Sequence record: MW349128.1 | Source: Staphylococcus phage Machias | Strand: one strand, 5' to 3' | DNA: 64,000 nt | Shown: positions 4,393 through 40,878 of the stretch, in pieces | Numbering within the stretch: the stretch's first letter is position 1 | How the letters are laid out: every line of letters starts with the position of its first letter | Position numbers and translations under genes: made by a program | The notes under the pieces: generated by a model | Told to the model about the DNA's origin: nothing | The model's input: the letters and a program-made list of their open reading frames with translations, nothing else | Databases searched by the model: none

Positions 4393-5178
4393 TTGAGTAT
4401 TTTAATTGAAGAAAGTAAAATAGTAAATAAATTAGTCATGACTTTTGAAGAAATTTCTAAATTATTTAATAATATTGAAAATGGAAGTAAATTGATAGAT
4501 TTCAAAAATAATGTATTTACTAATGGTTCTAATTTAGAAACTATACCTAATAATGTTAATGTACAAATTAAAGAAGATAATCCAATTTATGATTATCTTC
4601 TTCCAATTGAATATTGTAGCTTTAATGTAGAAGATTTTATACAGGTTAGAACTAATAAAGCTGATAAAATTATTAAAGTAGAATTCTTTAATGATGAAGA
4701 TAATAAAGGTATTAAGTTTACTAGAGAATCTGATTTAGAAACAATTATTGATGATAAAGATTATTATATTGAAGAGAATATTAATGAAGAATATAATTAT
4801 ACAGAGGATGCTATTAAATTTCTTAAAGAATCAGATCCTTTCTATTCTTTTAATTTAGATGAAAAATCTTTATTATATATTAAAGAATGTAAACCTTCTG
4901 AATTCTTTAAATGTATATTTACTGAAAATGAAATGTTTGTAAGAGAACCGTATTATATTTATAATGAAGATGATTATTTAATTGATTTTAGAACTTCAAA
5001 GAAATATCTATTAGGATTAAAATATAAAACTACAAAAGGAAATATTGTTTGTCCTGAAGTTCATGTAGATATCTTTGCTCCGGAAACAGATGTATATAGT
5101 GAATTTATCTTACTAAAATTTTCAATTTCTCAAGATAAATTTATAGCAAATTTAGATTTTTTGATTTATAATATATAA
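4393..5178 (+). CDS. hypothetical protein (261 aa), TTG start
   Basis: GGAG 10 nt upstream of TTG 4393; no recognisable motifs. Confidence 0.45.
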   Translation: MSILIEESKIVNKLVMTFEEISKLFNNIENGSKLIDFKNNVFTNGSNLETIPNNVNVQIKEDNPIYDYLLPIEYCSFNVEDFIQVRTNKADKIIKVEFFNDEDNKGIKFTRESDLETIIDDKDYYIEENINEEYNYTEDAIKFLKESDPFYSFNLDEKSLLYIKECKPSEFFKCIFTENEMFVREPYYIYNEDDYLIDFRTSKKYLLGLKYKTTKGNIVCPEVHVDIFAPETDVYSEFILLKFSISQDKFIANLDFLIYNI

Positions 5179-10616: not shown

Positions 10617-12173
10617 TTGAAAATTATGGTAGTTTTAAATAAAACAAGAAAAATAAAAGTGTCGGTTTATCCGACACGAATTCTTGTTGAAAATTATGAA
10701 CTAGGATATTGTTCAGCAATAGAGAAATATCTATCTGTATGGGATAAAATATACTTTAAACATACGTATAAAGCTTTCGTATATAATGAAGAAGAGAAAA
10801 CTATATCGTTTCCTGCTGGAATAAATATGAAGATACTAATTCAGTCATTACAAAATCATGGAGAAGTAGATTTTCAAGATTTTAGAAAAGTAGACAATTT
10901 ATATTTTAAACCTAAAAAGAATTATGATGTAGAAATGAATTTTAAACCAAGAGATTTATTACAAAAGAAATCTATTGAATTCTTAAACGCTTTTAGTATA
11001 TATGAAGCTTCAACTCAGAAATTTTTATCACTTAAAACTGGTGAAGGTAAAACTTTTTGTGCTTTAAAAAGTGTTATTGATCGTCAGTTAGTTCCTATGA
11101 TATTTGTCAATAATAATAAACTTAAAGAACAATGGTTTGATAAGATTAAAGAATATACCAATATTGATGATGAAAGAATATATATTATTCAAGGTAAATC
11201 AAGTATTAATAAATTATTTAAAATGAAGTCTGATGAACGTAATAAAATAGATTTCTATATAGTTATGTATAAGACATTAAATTCATTTATAGAAGACGAC
11301 ATTGAAAAACTACAAGAACTAATATTTAAAACTAAAGTATCTATTAAGATATTTGATGAAGCACATTTAGACTTTAGAAGTTTAACAAATATAGATATAC
11401 AAACAGATTTACCGTCTATATATCTCTCTGCAACTCCTGAAAGATCTGATAAATCAGAGAACTTTGTATTTAATAATATATTCTTAAATGTTCCTATATT
11501 TAGATCTGACAATTATGATAAACAAATAGCTTCTAATAGAAAGATACCATCTAAATATCATGATGTGTTCATTATACGCTACAATAGTGAACCTAGTGAA
11601 ACAGAGCTAGCAGATTTTGTTTCAGCATCAAGAAGAAATGGTCTTAATGTAAATCATTACAGTAAATATCTTATAGATAAAGATGAGAGAAAAGATAAAT
11701 ATTTTGATATGATATTTAATATCATTAATGAAGTTATTATGAAAAAAGAAATAAGAAAAACTGTCGTTATGTTTAAATTGAAAAATATGATAGATGAGTT
11801 TTATTACTATTTAGAAGAAAAATTAGGTAAAGAAGGATTAGAATTTCTAAACTGTATTCGCTACTATGATGGAATTGATAAAGAAGAAAAATCTAAAGTA
11901 TTAGAATCTAATCTAATAATTACTACAGATTTATCTTTAGGAACAGGTATAGACATACCTGATCTCAAAGCTGTCATTAATACAGTTCCATTATCTTCTG
12001 AAAGTAAAGTTATACAGATAATGGGAAGATTACGCTATATTGAAAATGAAAAATTGATGTATTTTGATTTTGTCGATCATGGTTTTAAAAAACTAGTAAC
12101 GCAAGCTAATAATAGATTAAAAAATGTATTTAAGAAAAAAGCTTTAAACGTTACTGATTTTAAGTTAAAATAA
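10617..12173 (+). CDS. SF2 DEAD/DEAH-box helicase
   Basis: Motif I LKTGEGKTF, motif II IFDEAHL, motif III SATPER, motif VI QIMGRLRY. The alternative ATG at 10626 is equally plausible. Confidence 0.7.
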   Translation: MKIMVVLNKTRKIKVSVYPTRILVENYELGYCSAIEKYLSVWDKIYFKHTYKAFVYNEEEKTISFPAGINMKILIQSLQNHGEVDFQDFRKVDNLYFKPKKNYDVEMNFKPRDLLQKKSIEFLNAFSIYEASTQKFLSLKTGEGKTFCALKSVIDRQLVPMIFVNNNKLKEQWFDKIKEYTNIDDERIYIIQGKSSINKLFKMKSDERNKIDFYIVMYKTLNSFIEDDIEKLQELIFKTKVSIKIFDEAHLDFRSLTNIDIQTDLPSIYLSATPERSDKSENFVFNNIFLNVPIFRSDNYDKQIASNRKIPSKYHDVFIIRYNSEPSETELADFVSASRRNGLNVNHYSKYLIDKDERKDKYFDMIFNIINEVIMKKEIRKTVVMFKLKNMIDEFYYYLEEKLGKEGLEFLNCIRYYDGIDKEEKSKVLESNLIITTDLSLGTGIDIPDLKAVINTVPLSSESKVIQIMGRLRYIENEKLMYFDFVDHGFKKLVTQANNRLKNVFKKKALNVTDFKLK

Positions 12174-35833: not shown

Positions 35834-37387
35834 TTGGTTAATATGATTTATGATAAAAAAGATTTATCTGAGAAAGAAGTATCAACTTTATTAAGTATAA
35901 AAAAAGAAGATATTACTCTTGATAAACTTAAAGAATTATTTGCATTTAGACAAAATACACAACCAATGTTTAACCCTAGCGATAGATTTAAACTTAAAAA
36001 AGATTTAGTTTATAATAGTAAAGATGAGAGAACAACAGTTGGAAGATATATATTTAATAAATTTATATTAGACAATAAAATAGGACCTATTATAGGATAT
36101 ATGAATAAAGATATGGGAGGATCAGGTGTAGGAAATCTACAATCTGAACTATCTAGTTTATTACTTAATGATGTTATTACAACTAAAGATATGAATATGT
36201 ATATTGATAAACTTCAATGGCTCGGTTTCTCCATAGCAGGATTTATTAATTCTAGCTTAACAACTACAATGATGGTTGCTCCCGATAAAGTTAAACAAAA
36301 GAAAGAAGAATTACTAGAGAAATATGGTAAAGCATTAAATACTCCTGGTGAAGAATTGAATGCTATTAGTGCTATTGAAAAAGAATTAATTAAGTTAAGT
36401 AAGGAAGAATTAGAAGGTTTAGCAGATCTTGATATTTATGATAGTGGATCAAGAGGTAGTTTTGGAAATAACTTCAAGTTAACAGCTCTTATTCGTGGAG
36501 CAAATAAAAACTTTGCTGATCCTAGTAAAATACGTATTGCTAAGAGTTCTTTAGCTGATGGAATTGATCCAGAAGAATTATATATGTTTGGTGATATTAT
36601 GACAGCTGGTTCAGCTGGACGTGCTTTAGGTATATGAATGCCCTTTATTATAGTAATATAATAATAGAAAAATTATTAATTGCTGAGAAGATATAAACTT
36701 AATCAGCATCAATCAGAATGATTGTTCAACGACTAAATATAATTAAACTCATAAAGAGTTTTTGATATAGTCTGATCTATATTAAATTAATATAGATTAA
36801 CATAAATGACTCAAGAAGGTGGGTAAATTAGATGCTCACAATAAATTCTATTAATTGCTAGAATGTTAAAACTAACTAGCATCAACTTTATTAAGTTGTT
36901 CAACGACTAAATATAGAAATGATTAAATTCATAAGATATAGTCTAATCTATAATAAAATATAGATAATAAAATGATCAAGCTAAAAAACTTATGTCCGCT
37001 TTCCAAACAACTGTATTAGATAAACAAGGTTCTGATTGTAGAACAAAACATACATTAAAATTAACATTAACTAAAGATAATGCGAGTCTTTTATTATATA
37101 GATATTTTGAAGATACTTCAGGAAGAAAAGGTCAATTAATACTATTAACGCCTGAAAATGTGGATGAACACATGGGTAAAGTATTGAACTTCAGAAGTCC
37201 TATGTATTGTGCAAGTGAAGATATTTGTAGTAAATGTGCAGGAGAACTCCCTTACAAACTAGGTATAGAAAATATTGGACTATTGGTTAACCAAGTGGCT
37301 CAAGCAATTGTAACAAGCTCCATGAAGTCTTTCCATGATATGACAATTAAACAAAATGAAATAGATATCGAAGATTATATTTATTAA
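35834..37387 (+). CDS. second multisubunit RNA polymerase beta-prime C-terminal-like subunit; proposed exons 35834..36631, 36809..36824 (16-nt micro-exon), 36975..37387
   Basis: ...MTAGSAGRALG + TQEGG(Y) + QAKKLMSAFQTTVLDKQGSDCRTKHT parallels beta-prime [95 protein letters not shown] parallels region G. The exon lengths 798+16+413 = 1227 nt are in frame. Confidence 0.65.
36632..36808 (+). mobile_element. ORF-less minimal group I intron A (177 nt) in the second beta-prime gene
   Basis: ATATGAATGCCCTTTATTATAG..., P TTAATTGCTGAGAAG, Q AATCAGCATC, R GTTCAACGACTAAATAT, S TTGATATAGTCTGATCT, ends CATAAATG. Confidence 0.55.
36825..36974 (+). mobile_element. ORF-less minimal group I intron B (150 nt) in the second beta-prime gene
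   Basis: AAATTAGATGCTCACAATAAATTCTA..., P TTAATTGCTAGAATG, Q AACTAGCATC (compensatory GCUAG/CUAGC versus GCUGA/UCAGC), R GTTCAACGACTAAATAT, S AAGATATAGTCTAATCT, ends ATAAAATG (omega-G 36974). Confidence 0.5.
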
Positions 37388-37434
37388 AAGCGTAATATAT
37401 TGAAATATAAACATATATTATAATAATGAAGAAA

Positions 37435-37504
37435 GTTTATCTAGCTCAGTTGGTAGAGCAATGATTTTCATCATGTGTCCGGGGTTCGATCCCTCGGATA
37501 AGCT
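37435..37504 (+). tRNA. tRNA-like gene with a 4-nt anticodon loop (probable tRNA pseudogene/degenerate tRNA)
   Basis: Acceptor GTTTATC/GATAAGC, D arm GCTC-AGTTGGTA-GAGC, T arm CGGGG-TTCGATC-CCTCG, variable GTGTC. The anticodon stem ATGAT/ATCAT encloses only TTTC. Confidence 0.35.
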
Positions 37505-37857
37505 TTTTTTGGTCTAAAATTCTTATTTATTAAAAAATTTTATTTAAAAATATTAATTAACTATATAGTATAAATCTATAATGATCCTCGTCAAATTATT
37601 ATAGATTTTTTTTTTAGTTTTTGATTTAACTAAAAAATATAATAGATTAAATTCTATTATAACTTACTTTGTCGTTTGTTGTTGCTTTAAAAATGTTCCT
37701 TTGATTTCTTGTTTCTATTTTTAATATGTCATGGTTTTAAATAGAAATCCATACGCCTCCTTACGTATAATTAAAAATGAATAGATATTATTATATATTT
37801 ATTTACTTAAAAGAGTGCATAGATGATAAATGTACTCTTTTATTTTTTTTTTATTAA

Positions 37858-37929
37858 TGCTCTATAATTCAATGGTAGAATGCTTGACTGTTAATCAAGA
37901 GGTTGTTTGTTCGAATCAAACTAGAGCAG
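37858..37929 (+). tRNA. tRNA-Asn (anticodon GTT)
   Basis: Acceptor TGCTCTA/TAGAGCA (7/7), TA at positions 8-9, D arm ATTC-AATGGTA-GAAT, anticodon arm CTTGA-CTGTTAA-TCAAG, variable AGGTT, T arm GTTTG-TTCGAAT-CAAAC, discriminator G. Preceded by a terminator-like hairpin plus T-run. Confidence 0.8.
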
Positions 37930-37936
37930 TTTCTAT

Positions 37937-38039
37937 GTTCCTATAGCTCAATGGTCAGAGCGTACGGATTTCATGAATTATACCTGGATAGGATAATTTA
38001 TGGATCTGTAGGTTATGAGTTCGAATCTCATTAGGAACA
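37937..38039 (+). tRNA. tRNA-like gene (103 nt) with canonical acceptor/D/T arms and a 38-nt anticodon loop; reads as tRNA-Glu(TTC) carrying a 31-nt insertion at the canonical 37/38 intron position
   Basis: Acceptor GTTCCTA/TAGGAAC, D arm GCTC-AATGGTCA-GAGC, T arm ATGAG-TTCGAAT-CTCAT, anticodon stem TACGG/CTGTA (one G-U). The loop ATTTCA + 31 nt + T contains its own AATTAT/ATAATT hairpin. Confidence 0.4.
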
Positions 38040-38554
38040 ACCCTATAGGATTAATCATCCTTATAGCTTGGCTGCAGACTTGCTATAAATAAAATATAAA
38101 TTGAGTGATATGCCAAACTTAATTTATTAGATTCAACTAAAGTTAAGGCATATCTTTAGTTGTAAAAAAAATAGCACATATATTTAATCTGTCAAATTAA
38201 ATATATGTATCACAACAATCATTACAGTTTTAGGTCTAATTTACGTTTAGTTATTAGATCGGAGTATTAAAGAGGACTTATTTTACATTAATTTGTGATA
38301 AGTATCTGACTTTAATACATTTTAGGTTTTCTAGTTTCTTAGTCCCTAATATAAGAAAAACTAGACTATTAAATCGCTACAAGATTCCTAATATGTTCCA
38401 TGCATATATTGGTTTCTTTAATCCTTCTTATGCTTTATGGGATATAAAAAATTATTAAAGCAACTTTATACTTTTTTCGTAAAAGTAACTATAACCCTAA
38501 CCTACAGATTGATTCCAAATTAGTCGAAGAGGTTAGGGTTATTTTATACATATT

Positions 38555-38584
38555 TCCCAATATCTAATTTAATAGATATTGGGA
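38555..38584 (+). terminator. terminator, conserved hairpin family (TCCCAATATCT...AGATATTGGGA)
   Basis: 11-bp stem plus T-run after the tRNA region; a preceding AACCCTAACCT/AGGTTAGGGTT hairpin lies at about 38472..38527. Confidence 0.5.
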
Positions 38585-38600
38585 TTATTTTTATTTTACG

Positions 38601-38620
38601 TTTTAAATATATATTATAAA
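38601..38620 (+). promoter_or_regulatory. early-type promoter-like motif TTTTAAATATATATTATAAA
   Basis: 54 nt upstream of the 38674 start. Confidence 0.45.
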
Positions 38621-38673
38621 TTTGAGATTATTAAAATATAATCTTAATATTATAATATGGAGATGAATGCGAT

Positions 38674-40878
38674 ATGCTAGGTAAAAAATTAAGAGAAAGT
38701 TTTAAAGAAAAATTAGGTAATGACTATACATTTAATATAGATAATGATAAAGATTATCAAATAAATGAAGACAAAGTAAAAGTAACTTATAAAGGAAAAA
38801 TATCTGAAGAATTTAAGATAAGAATGATTAAATATACTAAAAGCAAAGAATGGCTTGATAATTATTTTGAAAGCTGTTTAAGAATAATTGACTCAGGAGA
38901 AAATGAAAATAAAGTTAACGCTGAGAAATTTTTAAAAAATAAAGAAAGAACTAAGAGACTTGAATCTCCTATGGTAGAAAACGCTAATGAATCTTTAGAA
39001 CCTTATACATTTTTCTTAAATAGCTCTACTAAAATGAAAGATAAAGTTAGATATTTAAAGAATAAAAGTAAAGAAGAAAAATATTTATTCTTCTATAATG
39101 CTACAATAGCTAAATATGGACTATATTCTCCTTATGATGTATCTAATTTTAAACCGAATAGTATAAATACTAAACAAAATATAGTATGTGAAAAACATGG
39201 TAGCTTTAAAAGTTCAGTTAAAAATTTTCTTATGAATGATCTTGATGGTTGTCCAGGTTGTAAGAAAGATGGAGAAGTGGCAACTACTGAAGATATCTTT
39301 AATAATTTAAAAGATATAGATCCTGATTTATTTTTAGAATTGACTAAAGATTACACAGAAGATGAAAAAGATCATATTTATGATTTAGCTCTAAATAAAG
39401 CTAATAATACAAACTATGATTTTTCTAAATTTAGACCCATTAACGAAAAAGATATTCAACCAATTATATGTGAAAAACATGGTGAATTTAAAACATCTAT
39501 ACATGAAATGTTATTTGATAAAAAATTAGCTTGTCCTAAATGTGAAGAAGAAAAACTTAGTATAGATAAAGACTGGGAAAAGATTGTAGAAAATAATAAA
39601 AAGAAACGTGAAGAAGAAACTGAGAAATTACTTAAGGGTATAAAGAAAACACCAAAAGCTAAAAAGAATATGAAGAAAGAAAGTATAGAAAGAGAAATTT
39701 CTAATAATTTTAATATTGATCAAGTTAATAATGTTATTAAAAGTTCAAATAAAGAACAAAAAGAAATAATTCCAGAACCAATACCAAAAATAAAGAATAA
39801 GAGAAAATATTCAGTTCAAGAATTAAAAGAGTATAAACGTATAAAGTCACTTAATACTAAGATTAAAAATCTTAATAACTTTGATTATACTGAAGAAGAA
39901 AAGACTGAAGTATATCAAACACTTGCAAATATTAAACATGGTAAAGATAAATATAATATGAGTAAATTTAGACCTAGCGATAAATATGAAAAATCAATAG
40001 TAATATGTAAAGACCATGGTGAATTTAAAATAAATGCAAATGAATTAATAGAAAAAGGTATTAATTGTCCGTCATGTAGTAATGGAAAATCATCTATTGC
40101 TGAATCAAAAGTATCTGATGAAATGAAATATTTAGGTTTTGAAATAGAAAGACAGAATAGAGATTTGTTAGATGGTAAAGAAATTGATATACTCTCTGAA
40201 GAACATAAATTGGCTATTGAAGTTAATGGAGTTAAATATCATTCTAATGAAACTAAATCTGATATAAATGCTAAGTATCATCAACTTAAGAAATACAATG
40301 AACTTAAAGAAAAGGGATACCATCTTCTTAATTTATTTGATGATGATATTCGTAATGAAACTAAAAGAATTGATGGTAAGAATTATGCTAAATTCTTACA
40401 TCAATTGTTACTATTTAAAGATGATTATTCCGTATTAGACTATGGTGGTATAAAAATTAAATCTATGGGATTCTTTACATTTAAAGATTTCTTTGAAAAT
40501 CATTCAACAGAAGACTTTTATGGAAAAGATTCTGACTTCTTCGCTCTTTATTATAAAGGTTATATTATTTGTGCATTTTCTTTTAATAATAAGACTAATG
40601 TATCACATAATTTTATTTCACTTTTAAATACAGACGCAGATTTAATTAAAATTAAGAAGGTATTTCCAGGTTTAACTTTTAACGTAAAATCTGATTCATA
40701 TACATGTTATAAATTTGAAAAATTTGGAATGTATAAAGTAGGTAATGAATTACCTATTGAAAAGACTTTCTTAAAAGGTACAAGTAATGATAGCTATATA
40801 AGAAATAAGATTGATAAAAATAAAACTTATATAAATAAAGTATATGATACAGGTTCGACTAATTTTATATTTGAATGA
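38674..40878 (+). CDS. free-standing homing-endonuclease-like protein, three CxHG...CPxC modules plus an EDxHD/Vsr-like nuclease domain
   Basis: CEKHGSFKSSV...GCPGCK, CEKHGEFKTSIH...ACPKCE, CKDHGEFKINAN...NCPSCS; LGFEIERQNRDLLDGKEIDILSEEHKLAIEVNGVKYH. No intron core elements flank it. Confidence 0.55.
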   Translation: MLGKKLRESFKEKLGNDYTFNIDNDKDYQINEDKVKVTYKGKISEEFKIRMIKYTKSKEWLDNYFESCLRIIDSGENENKVNAEKFLKNKERTKRLESPMVENANESLEPYTFFLNSSTKMKDKVRYLKNKSKEEKYLFFYNATIAKYGLYSPYDVSNFKPNSINTKQNIVCEKHGSFKSSVKNFLMNDLDGCPGCKKDGEVATTEDIFNNLKDIDPDLFLELTKDYTEDEKDHIYDLALNKANNTNYDFSKFRPINEKDIQPIICEKHGEFKTSIHEMLFDKKLACPKCEEEKLSIDKDWEKIVENNKKKREEETEKLLKGIKKTPKAKKNMKKESIEREISNNFNIDQVNNVIKSSNKEQKEIIPEPIPKIKNKRKYSVQELKEYKRIKSLNTKIKNLNNFDYTEEEKTEVYQTLANIKHGKDKYNMSKFRPSDKYEKSIVICKDHGEFKINANELIEKGINCPSCSNGKSSIAESKVSDEMKYLGFEIERQNRDLLDGKEIDILSEEHKLAIEVNGVKYHSNETKSDINAKYHQLKKYNELKEKGYHLLNLFDDDIRNETKRIDGKNYAKFLHQLLLFKDDYSVLDYGGIKIKSMGFFTFKDFFENHSTEDFYGKDSDFFALYYKGYIICAFSFNNKTNVSHNFISLLNTDADLIKIKKVFPGLTFNVKSDSYTCYKFEKFGMYKVGNELPIEKTFLKGTSNDSYIRNKIDKNKTYINKVYDTGSTNFIFE

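Follow-up and report, generated by a model that had tools for sequence, protein, structure and literature searches.

A tRNA-shaped element with a non-canonical anticodon region beside a covarying four-hairpin RNA in Staphylococcus jumbo phages

tRNA-like RNAs in other systems and at the phage locus

In plant mitochondria, tRNA-like t-elements direct cleavage by RNase P and RNase Z to make RNA ends (Forner et al., 2007, PMC1920247). Like the tRNA-shaped gene that is the main subject of this analysis (element 3), they are cloverleaves of non-canonical form that do not decode, keep a conserved T arm and acceptor stem, and lie beside another RNA. The RNA ends that RNase P and RNase Z set at t-elements have been mapped experimentally, and t-elements can accumulate as stable small RNAs, whereas cleavage of element 3 is a prediction. 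Furthermore, t-elements flank mRNAs in an organelle, while element 3 belongs to a bacteriophage and is placed ahead of a structured non-coding RNA. The TMERs of the herpesvirus MHV68 consist of a tRNA-like element followed by hairpins, which are separated by tRNase Z (PMC4838037). They share with element 3 and the hairpins behind it (H1 to H4) a viral origin and a tRNA-like element with hairpins downstream, but TMERs belong to a eukaryotic virus, are transcribed by RNA polymerase III and have hairpins that serve as Dicer substrates; the phage unit, whose bacterial host lacks a miRNA pathway, has four hairpins whose loops are invariant, with a loop-loop contact possible.

YrlA, a tRNA-mimicking non-coding RNA like element 3, is bound with Ro/Rsr and has its ends in the Ro-binding stem, whereas element 3 ends at its acceptor stem and no TROVE protein was found among the ORFs scanned. 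The YrlA model (Rfam RF02553) reached 18.5 bits at the locus (E = 1.5; gathering score 69), in a match that straddles parts of two genes. Some jumbo phages carry Ro/TROVE proteins together with such a partner RNA (PMC7824862). Phage tRNAs with a role against host defence (PMC10264068, PMC11464382, PMC11555353) resemble element 3 and a further tRNA-shaped gene of the locus (element 1) in having anticodon loops that depart from those of the host, but those tRNAs are able to decode, having 7-nt loops and defined anticodons, whereas elements 1 and 3 have no usable anticodon loop.

A pseudo-tRNA-Asn is annotated in Madawaska and Machias, and the literature regards such pseudo-tRNAs as degenerating genes. 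The pseudo-tRNA-Leu of DC4 (72,405-72,475) and the 'tRNA-Ser' of SA1 are orthologues of element 3, and PB50 and AH12 carry no tRNA annotation at the locus. In the literature on related Staphylococcus jumbo phages, we found no description of the universal retention, the covariation or the linked H1-H4 hairpins reported below. The published 94-nt 'tRNA-Phe(AAA)' of DC4 was considered and set aside, being an ARAGORN-only call with a sequence unlike the elements studied here.

The stretch of DNA analysed, referred to as the window, comprises 64,000 nucleotides of Staphylococcus phage Machias (MW349128.1), an S6/PB50-like Staphylococcus jumbo phage related to AR9. The locus contains the following features.

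37414-37421, + strand: early-promoter motif TATATTAT, 13 nt upstream of element 1
37435-37504, + strand: element 1, a full tRNA body whose anticodon arm (37461-37474) is cut down to 14 nt; Rfam 45.8 bits
37476-37510, + strand: T arm of element 1 lengthened to 9 bp with T7 behind it, a 3' end resembling an intrinsic terminator; terminator scan
37575-37615, + strand: AT-rich hairpin TCTATAAT/ATTATAGA followed by T10; direct reading, conserved in PB50 and AH12
37809-37852, + strand: hairpin AAAAGAGT/ACTCTTTT followed by T10, leader or terminator, directly upstream of tRNA-Asn; direct reading
37858-37929, + strand: canonical tRNA-Asn(GTT) with U1-A72 and G73; Rfam 72.1 bits, ARAGORN Asn
37937-38039, + strand: element 3, a canonical acceptor/D/T body with A73 and no encoded CCA; Rfam 54.7 bits, orthologues in relatives
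37963-38010, + strand: anticodon arm of element 3, a closed helix of about 21 bp; the apparent 38-nt loop is 37968-38005
38047-38061, + strand: hairpin H1, AGGAT-TAATC-ATCCT, invariant in all phages
38062-38087, + strand: hairpin H2, invariant 8-nt loop GCTGCAGA (38071-38078) on a covarying stem, 6 of 9 pairs changed on both sides
38096-38127, + strand: hairpin H3, 10 bp, covarying (5 of 10 pairs compensatory), loop with invariant ATATGCC (38108-38114)
38134-38162, + strand: hairpin H4, 9 bp, covarying (4 of 9 pairs compensatory), loop with GGCATAT (38147-38153)
38277-38303, + strand: hairpin ACTTAT/ATAAGT in the nine-phage alignment, ACTCAT/ATGAGT in SA1, absent from Madawaska
38330-38365, + strand: hairpin TCTAGTTT/AAACTAGA in the nine-phage alignment
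38555-38592, + strand: terminator-like hairpin with T-rich tail that closes the non-coding block; terminator scan

A sequence-only reading of this DNA had placed three tRNA-shaped elements on the + strand, and the Rfam tRNA model RF00005 confirmed all of them with full-length matches at identical coordinates (E = 1.5e-6 for element 1, 8.5e-14 for tRNA-Asn and 4.9e-9 for element 3), each above the gathering score of 29. Both these matches and direct segment reading reveal in all three the four stems of a cloverleaf (acceptor, D, anticodon and T) and the elbow between T loop and D loop, a shape that is far beyond chance. ARAGORN at default settings called 37858-37929 as tRNA-Asn(GTT), in agreement with its earlier description as a textbook gene, listed element 1 as 'tRNA-???' with a 2-nt anticodon, and missed element 3. 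Of the three, only tRNA-Asn has an anticodon loop of 7 nt that carries U33 and a purine at 37. ARAGORN reported no tmRNA in the window. Across 36500-38800, Rfam in E-value mode returned, besides the three tRNA matches, sub-threshold noise only: the YrlA match, an S15 leader at 14.5 bits, and Plastid-ycf2 matches that are opposite-strand mirror images of the tRNA shapes.

Structure and conservation of the elements

We compared element 3 with the corresponding regions of PB50, AH12, SA1, Madawaska, MarsHill, S6, PALS_2, LY01 and DC4, and of the metagenome contig L035, one more S6-type sequence recovered by a metagenome scan. An orthologue was found at the same location in all 10 other genomes examined. 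The window, PB50 and AH12 form one clade of phages about 95% identical to each other; together with SA1 and the S6 clade, this amounts to about three deep lineages, so that independent compensatory events are few. Searches further afield brought up no additional copies. In IMG/VR, the T-arm/acceptor pattern matched unrelated phage tRNAs only. The trailer-plus-H1 pattern matched nothing, the H4 pattern gave chance matches within coding sequence only, a genome scan gave a single chance match in a Rhodoblastus MAG of 62% GC, and the H1-H4 covariance model found no match in regions of about 12 kb around the vRNAP beta'-mid genes of AR9 and BpSp.

Direct reading of element 3 confirmed the intact acceptor (GTTCCTA/TAGGAAC), D (GCTC/GAGC) and T (ATGAG/CTCAT) stems proposed earlier, as well as an anticodon stem, TACGG/CTGTA, enclosing 38 nt. 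In eight sequences, not one of the 17 pairs in the acceptor, anticodon and T stems is non-standard, and eight of them have changed on both sides (acceptor pairs 5, 6 and 7; anticodon-stem pairs 1, 3, 4 and 5; T-stem pair 1). In the T loop, only position 57 (R) and position 59 vary, and the G18/G19 pair is retained. Orthologues of the S6 clade have a D stem of 3 pairs only, and the Rfam tRNA model fails to reach E <= 1 on them. BLAST homology between clades begins only in the T arm, the 5' halves being so strongly divergent that replacement by another tRNA gene is possible, as opposed to covariation in situ.

The anticodon region presents a different picture from the body in every lineage. In the window, the anticodon arm is one continuous helix of about 21 bp with single-nucleotide bulges (MFE -36.4 kcal/mol, z = -5.3), and none of 200 shuffled sequences folds as well; the AATTAT/ATAATT hairpin noted earlier is present, not as an independent fold of an insert but as a part of this single helix. 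In AH12, the stem halves are separated by 20 nt. The orthologues of SA1, S6, Madawaska, MarsHill, LY01 and DC4 have no insert and carry non-canonical loops of 5-8 nt: SA1 has the 8-nt loop TTTGAATA, and the others have AGTAAAT or AACAAAT, in which U33 is replaced by G33 or A33. The anticodon position reads TTC in the window and TTT in PB50, is deleted in AH12, and reads TAA, CAA or (T)GAA in the distant phages. By this comparison, the anticodon loop of element 3 is under no selection. Two possible sources of the insert were also examined and rejected. A blastn search of 37388-38673 against the window found promoter-like AT-rich repeats only and no second copy of the 38 nt, as would be expected of a mobile or repeated element, and a duplication of the trailer plus H1 (ATAGGAT-AAT compared with ATAGGATTAAT) gave a local alignment score of 16, equal to the shuffle mean (P about 0.5).

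None of the element 3 orthologues encodes CCA at positions 74-76, which read ACC, CCC, CGC, CCG or AAC. Given that tRNA precursors without an encoded CCA go via RNase Z in Bacillus-type 3' processing, this absence fits the RNase Z route.

H1 starts 6-7 nt past the discriminator A73 of element 3 in every genome. In the alignment of H1-H4, 97.2% of cells are paired, compared with 25-40% when the partners are slid, and 15 pairs have changed on both sides, compared with 0-2 when slid; none of 500 shuffles reached the covariation score. Judging from many G.U wobbles and a lone A.C pair, the structure belongs to the + strand. Judged by this covariation, H1-H4 is a real structured RNA. It has no Rfam match, and its own covariance model scores 153 bits at the locus and finds a single copy in the window. 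The H3 and H4 loops are complementary, and kissing pairs can form in 100% of cells; a 7-bp H3-H4 kissing interaction is thus possible from the sequence, although comparison neither supports nor contradicts the contact because both loops are invariant. Farther downstream, the position of the terminator at 38555-38592 is kept in all relatives, with the stem CCCTAACCT/AGGTTAGGG there. A candidate minus-strand small ORF behind GGAGG (37755-37760) was dismissed, since its frames span 1-7 codons and differ between phages.

The tRNA-Asn gene is present in PB50, Madawaska, S6 and PALS_2 and is precisely absent from 5 of 10 phage genomes (AH12, MarsHill, LY01, SA1 and DC4), its presence or absence being clean and bounded by direct TTAT repeats. 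The unit of tRNA-Asn and element 3 has a terminator-like hairpin and U-run directly upstream, with no clear promoter between, and the S6 clade has an analogous hairpin, AGTGGATCAT.../ATGATCCACT, ahead of its tRNA or tRNA-like genes.

Element 1 is specific to the window's clade, with identical copies in PB50 and AH12 and none in the other relatives. Its acceptor (GTTTATC/GATAAGC), D (GCTC/GAGC) and T (CGGGG/CCTCG) stems have the anatomy described earlier, but calling them perfect was slightly generous, as the acceptor has one U.G and the T stem one G.U pair. The anticodon arm, ATGAT-TTTC-ATCAT, does close a 4-nt TTTC loop on 5 bp as had been read, or alternatively a 6-nt loop on 4 bp; a normal arm has 17 nt. 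ARAGORN also labels the element 'tRNA-?(Lys|Glu)(tt)', and the closest matches to its body are tRNA-Lys genes of phages (86.7% over about 57 nt). The motif TATATTAT upstream of it is the consensus of AR9/MarsHill early (virion-RNAP) promoters (bioRxiv 10.1101/2020.12.14.422802), and the extended motif also precedes several ORFs of the window, for example at 38610, 41735 and 50927. The terminator scan found two sites against 0.2 expected from shuffles; it passed over the hairpin at 37575-37615 because the stem has no G-C pairs, and this hairpin is likely the end of a short early transcript bearing element 1. With this promoter motif and a U-run at its 3' end, element 1 would form its own short early transcript, and it is probably either a tRNA mimic in free form or a gene that was disabled recently.

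The surroundings of the locus are variable. One to three paralogous Hef-like homing-endonuclease genes flank it, gene content nearby changes between genomes, and AH12 has an additional endonuclease-like insertion near it. Pfam scans of 27 ORFs around the locus, in a genome of about 270 kb, found no RNA ligase, RtcB, kinase/phosphatase, splicing endonuclease or Ro/TROVE protein; apart from RNase H, a dCMP deaminase and RNA-polymerase fragments, they recognized no nucleic-acid enzymes.

Candidate functions and alternative explanations

With a probability of roughly 45%, we interpret element 3 as a conserved, non-decoding tRNA-shaped module that directs processing by RNase P and RNase Z, and not as an intron-bearing tRNA or a decaying pseudogene. 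From structure and conservation, we infer that the locus is transcribed and that the acceptor/T-arm elbow is retained for recognition by host tRNA-processing enzymes. RNase P would cut at G1, and RNase Z would be expected to cut past A73 because no CCA is encoded. These cuts would set free a stable tRNA-shaped RNA and, where tRNA-Asn is present, would also fix the 3' end of its precursor, but their chief effect would be to give an exact 5' end to the H1-H4 RNA (38047-38162), which may then act in a role of its own. The anticodon arm would stand outside decoding, with a closed helix as its sole requirement, leaving its distal part free to drift. RNase P/Z recognition alone leaves the perfect anticodon-stem pairing unexplained, which could point to a trans-acting mimic of a whole tRNA. 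Among the possibilities in the sequence-only reading, tRNA-derived regulatory RNAs or decoys came close to the interpretation favoured here, although its headline was an intron-bearing tRNA.

The view held in the literature on MarsHill, Madawaska and DC4, that such genes are functionless, decaying tRNA pseudogenes whose abnormal anticodon arms are damage, strikes us as unlikely. The sporadic gain and loss of tRNA-Asn between genomes, the indels in anticodon arms, the weakened D stem and failing Rfam model of the S6 clade, and the position of the locus amid mobile homing-endonuclease-like genes are all consistent with decay. Element 1, confined to one shallow clade, adds no variation for judging selection, since all three copies are identical. 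Decay is contradicted, however, by the retention of element 3 in every genome when the working tRNA-Asn is not so kept, by eight compensatory changes with zero broken pairs in three stems, by a T loop that varies solely where real tRNAs vary, and by the constant spacing of element 3 to the covarying H1-H4. In each lineage only the anticodon loop is damaged, a pattern that random decay would not give.

It is likewise doubtful that the elements serve chiefly as trans-acting mimics or decoys, processed and CCA-tailed RNAs that bind a host factor recognizing the tRNA body, with arm variation reflecting an arms race. Candidate targets would be a tRNA-targeting defence nuclease or sensor, a modification enzyme, or EF-Tu/aaRS. 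Retention of the whole L-shape including the anticodon stem, beyond the needs of RNase P and RNase Z, would suit such a role, as would an anticodon arm that is the most variable part even among phages of about 95% identity. Element 1 has its own early-promoter motif and short unit, a timing typical of counter-defence, and its body resembles tRNA-Lys, which anticodon nucleases often attack. There are phage tRNAs that protect against tRNA-cleaving defences (PMC10264068, PMC11464382, PMC11555353), but the examples known so far are working tRNAs with 7-nt loops that take the place of host tRNAs after cleavage; they are not decoys lacking an anticodon. Neither a defence system nor a partner protein was identified; Pfam found no dedicated tRNA-repair or RNA-binding partner among the 27 neighbouring ORFs. 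The fixed coupling of element 3 to H1-H4 is also left unexplained by a decoy role. A broader version, also improbable in our estimation, would join an anticodon-less mimic and a four-hairpin kissing-loop RNA in one composite non-coding RNA, to which one clade adds the early element 1. Once processed, its halves would work on the host in trans, with the mimic titrating a tRNA-recognizing defence or translation factor and the hairpins having regulatory or protein-binding functions, as a phage counterpart of the herpesvirus TMERs.

We regard it as very unlikely that the locus acts at the DNA level, as a target or immunity site for the Hef-like homing endonucleases with the arm indels as repair scars. 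The flanking paralogous endonuclease genes with their shifting gene content, the clean presence or absence of tRNA-Asn between TTAT repeats and the extra insertion in AH12 would all be in keeping with it, and T4 SegB, which acts in the T4 tRNA cluster, would be the analogue. However, the compensatory changes, along with G.U wobbles and one A.C pair, indicate that what is selected is a single-stranded fold of the + strand and not duplex DNA.

Non-standard decoding has still less in its favour. 8-nt anticodon loops are a hallmark of +1 frameshift suppressors, and the 6- or 8-nt loops of element 1 and of SA1 ('TGAA') could be taken for tRNAs of that type, all the more as ARAGORN assigns a 2-nt anticodon to element 1 and a 4-nt anticodon to the SA1 orthologue. 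Given that loop size differs in every orthologue (5/7, 6/8, 20 and 38 nt), no decoding property is conserved; in addition, the energetically preferred folds shrink the loops to 4-6 nt, and no frameshift-dependent gene was identified.

Finally, the sequence-only reading had proposed that element 3 is a tRNA-Glu(TTC) with an archaeal/eukaryal-type intron at 37/38. ATTTCA plus 31 nt plus T does yield a 7-nt loop broken at 37/38, and ARAGORN in intron mode, a check that the same reading had suggested, does return models, but with three identities and splice positions in near-identical phages: Arg(TCG) for the window, Gln(TTG) for PB50 and Ile(TAT) for AH12, with introns of 29, 29 and 11 nt. The rule applied in the original proposal is no more consistent, giving Glu for the window (ATTTCA), Lys for PB50 (ATTTTA) and none for AH12, which has lost one base at the anticodon and 17 further nt of the supposed intron. 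A scan for bulge-helix-bulge (BHB) motifs within the anticodon arm, G.U pairs allowed, found none in the window, PB50 or AH12 and did find a synthetic positive control. No Rfam intron family matched in 36500-38800, and 29-31 nt is far below the size of bacterial group I introns, which have a P1-P9 core and a length of about 200 nt or more. Bacteria are not known to have a tRNA-splicing endonuclease, nor Staphylococcus such an endonuclease with its ligase, and no candidate splicing enzyme was found among the 27 ORFs scanned. With the arm a single continuous helix and the insert-free orthologues still without a canonical loop, a functional tRNA from which a phage or host enzyme removes a 29-31-nt intron is hardly credible. 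The TTTTCAT/ATTTCAT remnant thought to link elements 1 and 3 did not hold up either, as it is not conserved in PB50 or AH12.

Meaning for jumbo-phage biology

The usual explanation for tRNA genes in phages is codon supply or, lately, replacement of host tRNAs cut by defence nucleases. At this locus, the best-conserved 'tRNA' of the whole jumbo-phage clade is unable to decode and is better kept than the neighbouring tRNA-Asn. The labels 'tRNA-Ser', 'pseudo-tRNA-Leu' and 'tRNA with intron' are artefacts of a tRNA model forced on a tRNA-like RNA. If the predicted processing is confirmed, phages would join plant mitochondria and a herpesvirus in reusing the tRNA fold as a handle for other RNAs, and the H1-H4 unit would represent a new, testable non-coding RNA in phages that are considered for S. 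aureus therapy.

Anatomy of the tRNA cluster and the intron interpretation

The Rfam tRNA model (gathering score 29) matched all three tRNA-shaped elements over their full length:

37435-37504, + strand: tRNA-like 1, 45.8 bits
37858-37929, + strand: tRNA-Asn(GTT), 72.1 bits, also called tRNA-Asn(GTT) by ARAGORN
37937-38039, + strand: tRNA-like 3, 54.7 bits

ARAGORN labeled tRNA-like 1 "tRNA-???", assigning it an anticodon of 2 nt, and, when run without intron search, missed tRNA-like 3. Read segment by segment, the former has a whole tRNA body with an anticodon arm of 14 nt versus the usual 17 (ATGAT-TTTC-ATCAT); the latter has a textbook acceptor stem, D arm and T arm, with TACGG and CTGTA separated by 38 nt. 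Its entire anticodon arm folds into one continuous helix of ~21 bp with single-base bulges (minimum free energy -36.4 kcal/mol, z = -5.3), and 0 of 200 shuffles fold as well. The Rfam matches, segment-wise reading and fold statistics thus bear out, far beyond chance, the anatomy described in the sequence-only reading; the 38 nt were correctly counted there but belong to the continuous helix, not to a loop.

That reading favored a tRNA-Glu(TTC) with an intron at position 37/38 for tRNA-like 3, an interpretation our analyses do not support. Scanning the anticodon arms of the window, PB50 and AH12 with G.U pairs permitted, a procedure validated with a synthetic positive control, found no bulge-helix-bulge arrangement. 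The proposed anticodon region (GGATTTCATG in the window, GGATTTTATG in PB50, AGATTT-ATG in AH12) is not kept between near-identical phages, and the AH12 "intron" is shorter by 17 nt. With intron search, ARAGORN assigned three identities (Arg(TCG) in the window, Gln(TTG) in PB50, Ile(TAT) in AH12) with differing intron lengths and positions. More distant orthologues have no insert, and their loops are still unusable. A bacterial group I intron was also rejected: the insert (29-31 nt) is far too short, and Rfam detected no intron family.

Conservation of tRNA-like 3 and a linked four-hairpin RNA

We compared tRNA-like 3 in PB50, AH12, SA1, Madawaska, MarsHill, S6, PALS_2, LY01, DC4 and one metagenome contig. 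Every related genome carries a homologue at the same position, followed by the invariant hairpin TAGGATTAATCATCCT. In several relatives, Rfam detects it only as a mirror-image "Plastid-ycf2" match on the opposite strand; in the literature, the DC4 and SA1 orthologues are named "pseudo-tRNA-Leu" and "tRNA-Ser," respectively. Among eight sequences segmented by hand, standard pairs are found in all eight for the acceptor (7/7), anticodon (5/5) and T (5/5) stems. Eight pairs have both partners substituted between lineages (acceptor 5, 6 and 7; anticodon-stem 1, 3, 4 and 5; T-stem 1), although this covariation is drawn from only about three deep lineages, and the 5' halves diverge between clades, so that gene replacement could mimic it. 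The D-loop GG is kept, and variation in the T loop (TTCRANT) is confined to position 57, always a purine, and position 59. The distal part of the anticodon arm, by contrast, differs each time and is never canonical.

Distal anticodon arm of tRNA-like 3
S6, Madawaska, MarsHill: loop AGTAAAT (G33); alternatively 6 bp and a 5-nt loop
LY01: loop AACAAAT (A33); alternatively 6 bp and a 5-nt loop
SA1: loop TTTGAATA, 8 nt; alternatively 6 bp and a 6-nt loop
AH12: 20 nt
Window and PB50: 38 nt

The canonical tRNA-Asn beside it is cleanly missing from AH12, MarsHill, LY01, SA1 and DC4. Therefore, judging from these genomes, the non-decoding element is retained more faithfully than the decoding tRNA. The published interpretation of these loci as "degenerating tRNA genes" predicts the opposite. 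The tRNA-Asn itself forms a clean presence/absence cassette bounded by short TTAT direct repeats (window 37853-37936 compared with AH12 4678-4686, L005 4290-4298 and L003 4290-4378), and its PB50-type and S6-type versions show many compensatory sequence differences.

Two other tRNA loci were noted. The 228-kb contig of an uncultivated jumbo phage (IMGVR_UViG_3300035698_010479, L008; - strand, ~11229-11330) encodes a tRNA with the acceptor stem of tRNA-like 3, a near-identical D arm and a canonical loop, TTCTAAA, whose anticodon CTA makes it an amber-suppressor tRNA. The published 94-nt "tRNA-Phe(AAA)" of DC4 (L018 1644-1737, - strand), an ARAGORN-only call in an unannotated stretch, is unlike the tRNA-like elements here and may be a false positive.

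An alignment of nine phages revealed a conserved non-coding block 3' of tRNA-like 3, the first ~120 nt of which form four hairpins, H1-H4 (window 38047-38162; L001 3371-3486; L007 7689-7804; and others).

Hairpins of the conserved non-coding block
H1: AGGAT-TAATC-ATCCT; invariant, loop TAATC
H2: covarying stem; invariant loop GCTGCAGA
H3: covarying 10-bp stem; loop with invariant ATATGCC
H4: covarying 9-bp stem; loop with invariant GGCATAT, complementary to the H3 loop
38277-38365: two further conserved hairpins, ACTTAT/ATAAGT (compensatory ACTCAT/ATGAGT in SA1) and TCTAGTTT/AAACTAGA

Of the alignment cells in the H1-H4 structure, 97.2% are paired, and 15 pairs have both partners changed; displacing the 3' partners by 1-3 columns lowers these values to 25-40% and 0-2, respectively. 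None of 500 shuffles matched the covariation score. Many G.U wobbles and a single A.C pair place the RNA on the + strand, like the tRNA-like genes. The loops of H3 and H4 could form a 7-bp kissing contact in every sequence; because both are invariant, the comparison speaks neither for nor against it. In every genome, H1 begins 6-7 nt past the discriminator base (A73) of tRNA-like 3, and no genome compared encodes a CCA after tRNA-like 3. The RNA has no Rfam match and is single-copy per genome; its covariance model matched the window once (153 bits) and had no match in the scanned regions of AR9 and BpSp. The hairpins at 38277-38365 suggest that the structured transcript may extend well beyond H4. 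The block ends with a terminator-like hairpin, followed by the early-promoter motif TATATTAT before the next ORF.

Genomic setting and predicted transcription signals

The 4-kb stretch at the locus matches Staphylococcus jumbo phages (vB_StaM_PB50, 95% identity; AH12, 94%) and, more distantly, AR9 and PBS1, two Bacillus phages with uracil-containing DNA. The flanking virion RNA polymerase beta'-mid gene is ~80% identical to those of LY01, MarsHill, Madawaska, SA1, S6, PALS_2 and DC4. GC content is ~25% across the whole window. The cluster lies in a 1.29-kb non-coding gap between the end of the beta'-mid gene (37387) and a 734-aa ORF (38674-40878), which has weak Pfam matches to DUF723, a treble-clef zinc finger and REase_MTES_1575/DUF559 nuclease domains and is homologous to the "Hef-like homing endonuclease" of AR9. 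One to three paralogues of this ORF border the locus in S6, LY01 and DC4. The neighborhood is therefore a hot spot for mobile elements, and this is probably why tRNA-Asn and ORFs close to it have been gained and lost. Among the 27 ORFs around the locus, Pfam identified structural proteins, fragments of RNA polymerase, RNase H and a dCMP deaminase, but neither an RNA ligase nor a splicing endonuclease nor a Ro/TROVE protein.

The Hef-like ORFs form a multi-copy, rapidly diverging family with zinc-finger repeats and a DUF559/REase_MTES_1575-like domain (window 38674-40878; L007 5218-7293 and 8167 onward; L019 2027-4102 and 4413-5864; L037 6502-8199). Copy number varies among phages; the copy directly 3' of the non-coding block is orthologous in all. 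The beta'-mid gene is one 1227-nt ORF in Madawaska, MarsHill, SA1 and S6 and two in the window (35834-36637 and 36992-37387), suggesting a ~354-nt intervening sequence (36638-36991), plausibly a group I intron as described in this phage group; Rfam found no intron match there. In AH12, ~1.3 kb has been inserted where this gene ends at its 3' side (L002 2890-4200); the added sequence contains an unannotated ORF, repeats the final ~45 nt of the gene and looks like a homing-endonuclease insertion.

tRNA-like 1, whose body is closest to phage tRNA-Lys genes, is shared by the window, PB50 and AH12 and by no other relative. The AR9/MarsHill early-promoter consensus, TATATTAT, lies 13 nt upstream of it; the extended T arm of tRNA-like 1 plus U7 scores as an intrinsic terminator, and a second hairpin, AT-rich and followed by T10, comes ~100 nt further 3'. 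Given these signals, tRNA-like 1 looks like a dedicated short early transcript. Since its three copies are identical, their comparison is uninformative on selection, and the element may be a functional tRNA mimic or a gene that was disabled recently. An extended form of the motif, (T/A-rich)TATATTATAA, which fits the AR9/MarsHill consensus, repeatedly precedes transcription units (13527, 35687, 37414, 38610, 41735, 50927 and 58323, + strand; 61394, - strand).

The tRNA-Asn/tRNA-like 3 unit is immediately preceded by a hairpin and its U-run, and the sequence between them shows no obvious promoter. At 37751-37768, the hairpin ATACG-CCTCCTTA-CGTAT displays an anti-Shine-Dalgarno-like CCUCC in its loop; its counterpart in the S6 clade is GGG-CCTCCGA-CCC. 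In both cases, CGTATAAT comes next, and then a hairpin that carries a U-run. The CCUCC hairpin, missing in SA1 and DC4, may act as a small regulatory RNA or as an element close to a promoter.

A candidate processing module

The pattern of tRNA-like 3 fits best with a tRNA-like processing and stability module, because its acceptor, T and anticodon stems and elbow appear to be under selection while the anticodon loop varies freely, a CCA is not encoded, and the covarying RNA downstream lies at a constant distance. Excision of the tRNA-shaped RNA by RNase P and RNase Z would at the same time set where the H1-H4 RNA begins. This is how plant-mitochondrial t-elements work, their excision by the same two enzymes defining the end of the adjoining RNA (PMC1920247), and the TMERs of MHV68, resolved by tRNase Z, share the layout of a tRNA-like element plus hairpins (PMC4838037). 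Transcription of the locus, its cleavage and any trans function are inferences from sequence.

There is real room for the tRNA-likes to act in trans as tRNA mimics or decoys, as the perfectly kept anticodon stem of tRNA-like 3 and the predicted early expression of tRNA-like 1 would favor. Phage tRNAs that counter tRNA-cleaving defenses are similar in spirit, but are functional decoders.

Copies in relatives have already been published as pseudo-tRNAs; the accounts we examined mention neither their conservation and covariation nor the linked RNA. The finding is best summarized as a set of conserved tRNA-like RNAs without anticodons; on comparative grounds, one of these appears to head a previously unannotated structured non-coding RNA specific to Staphylococcus jumbo phages.
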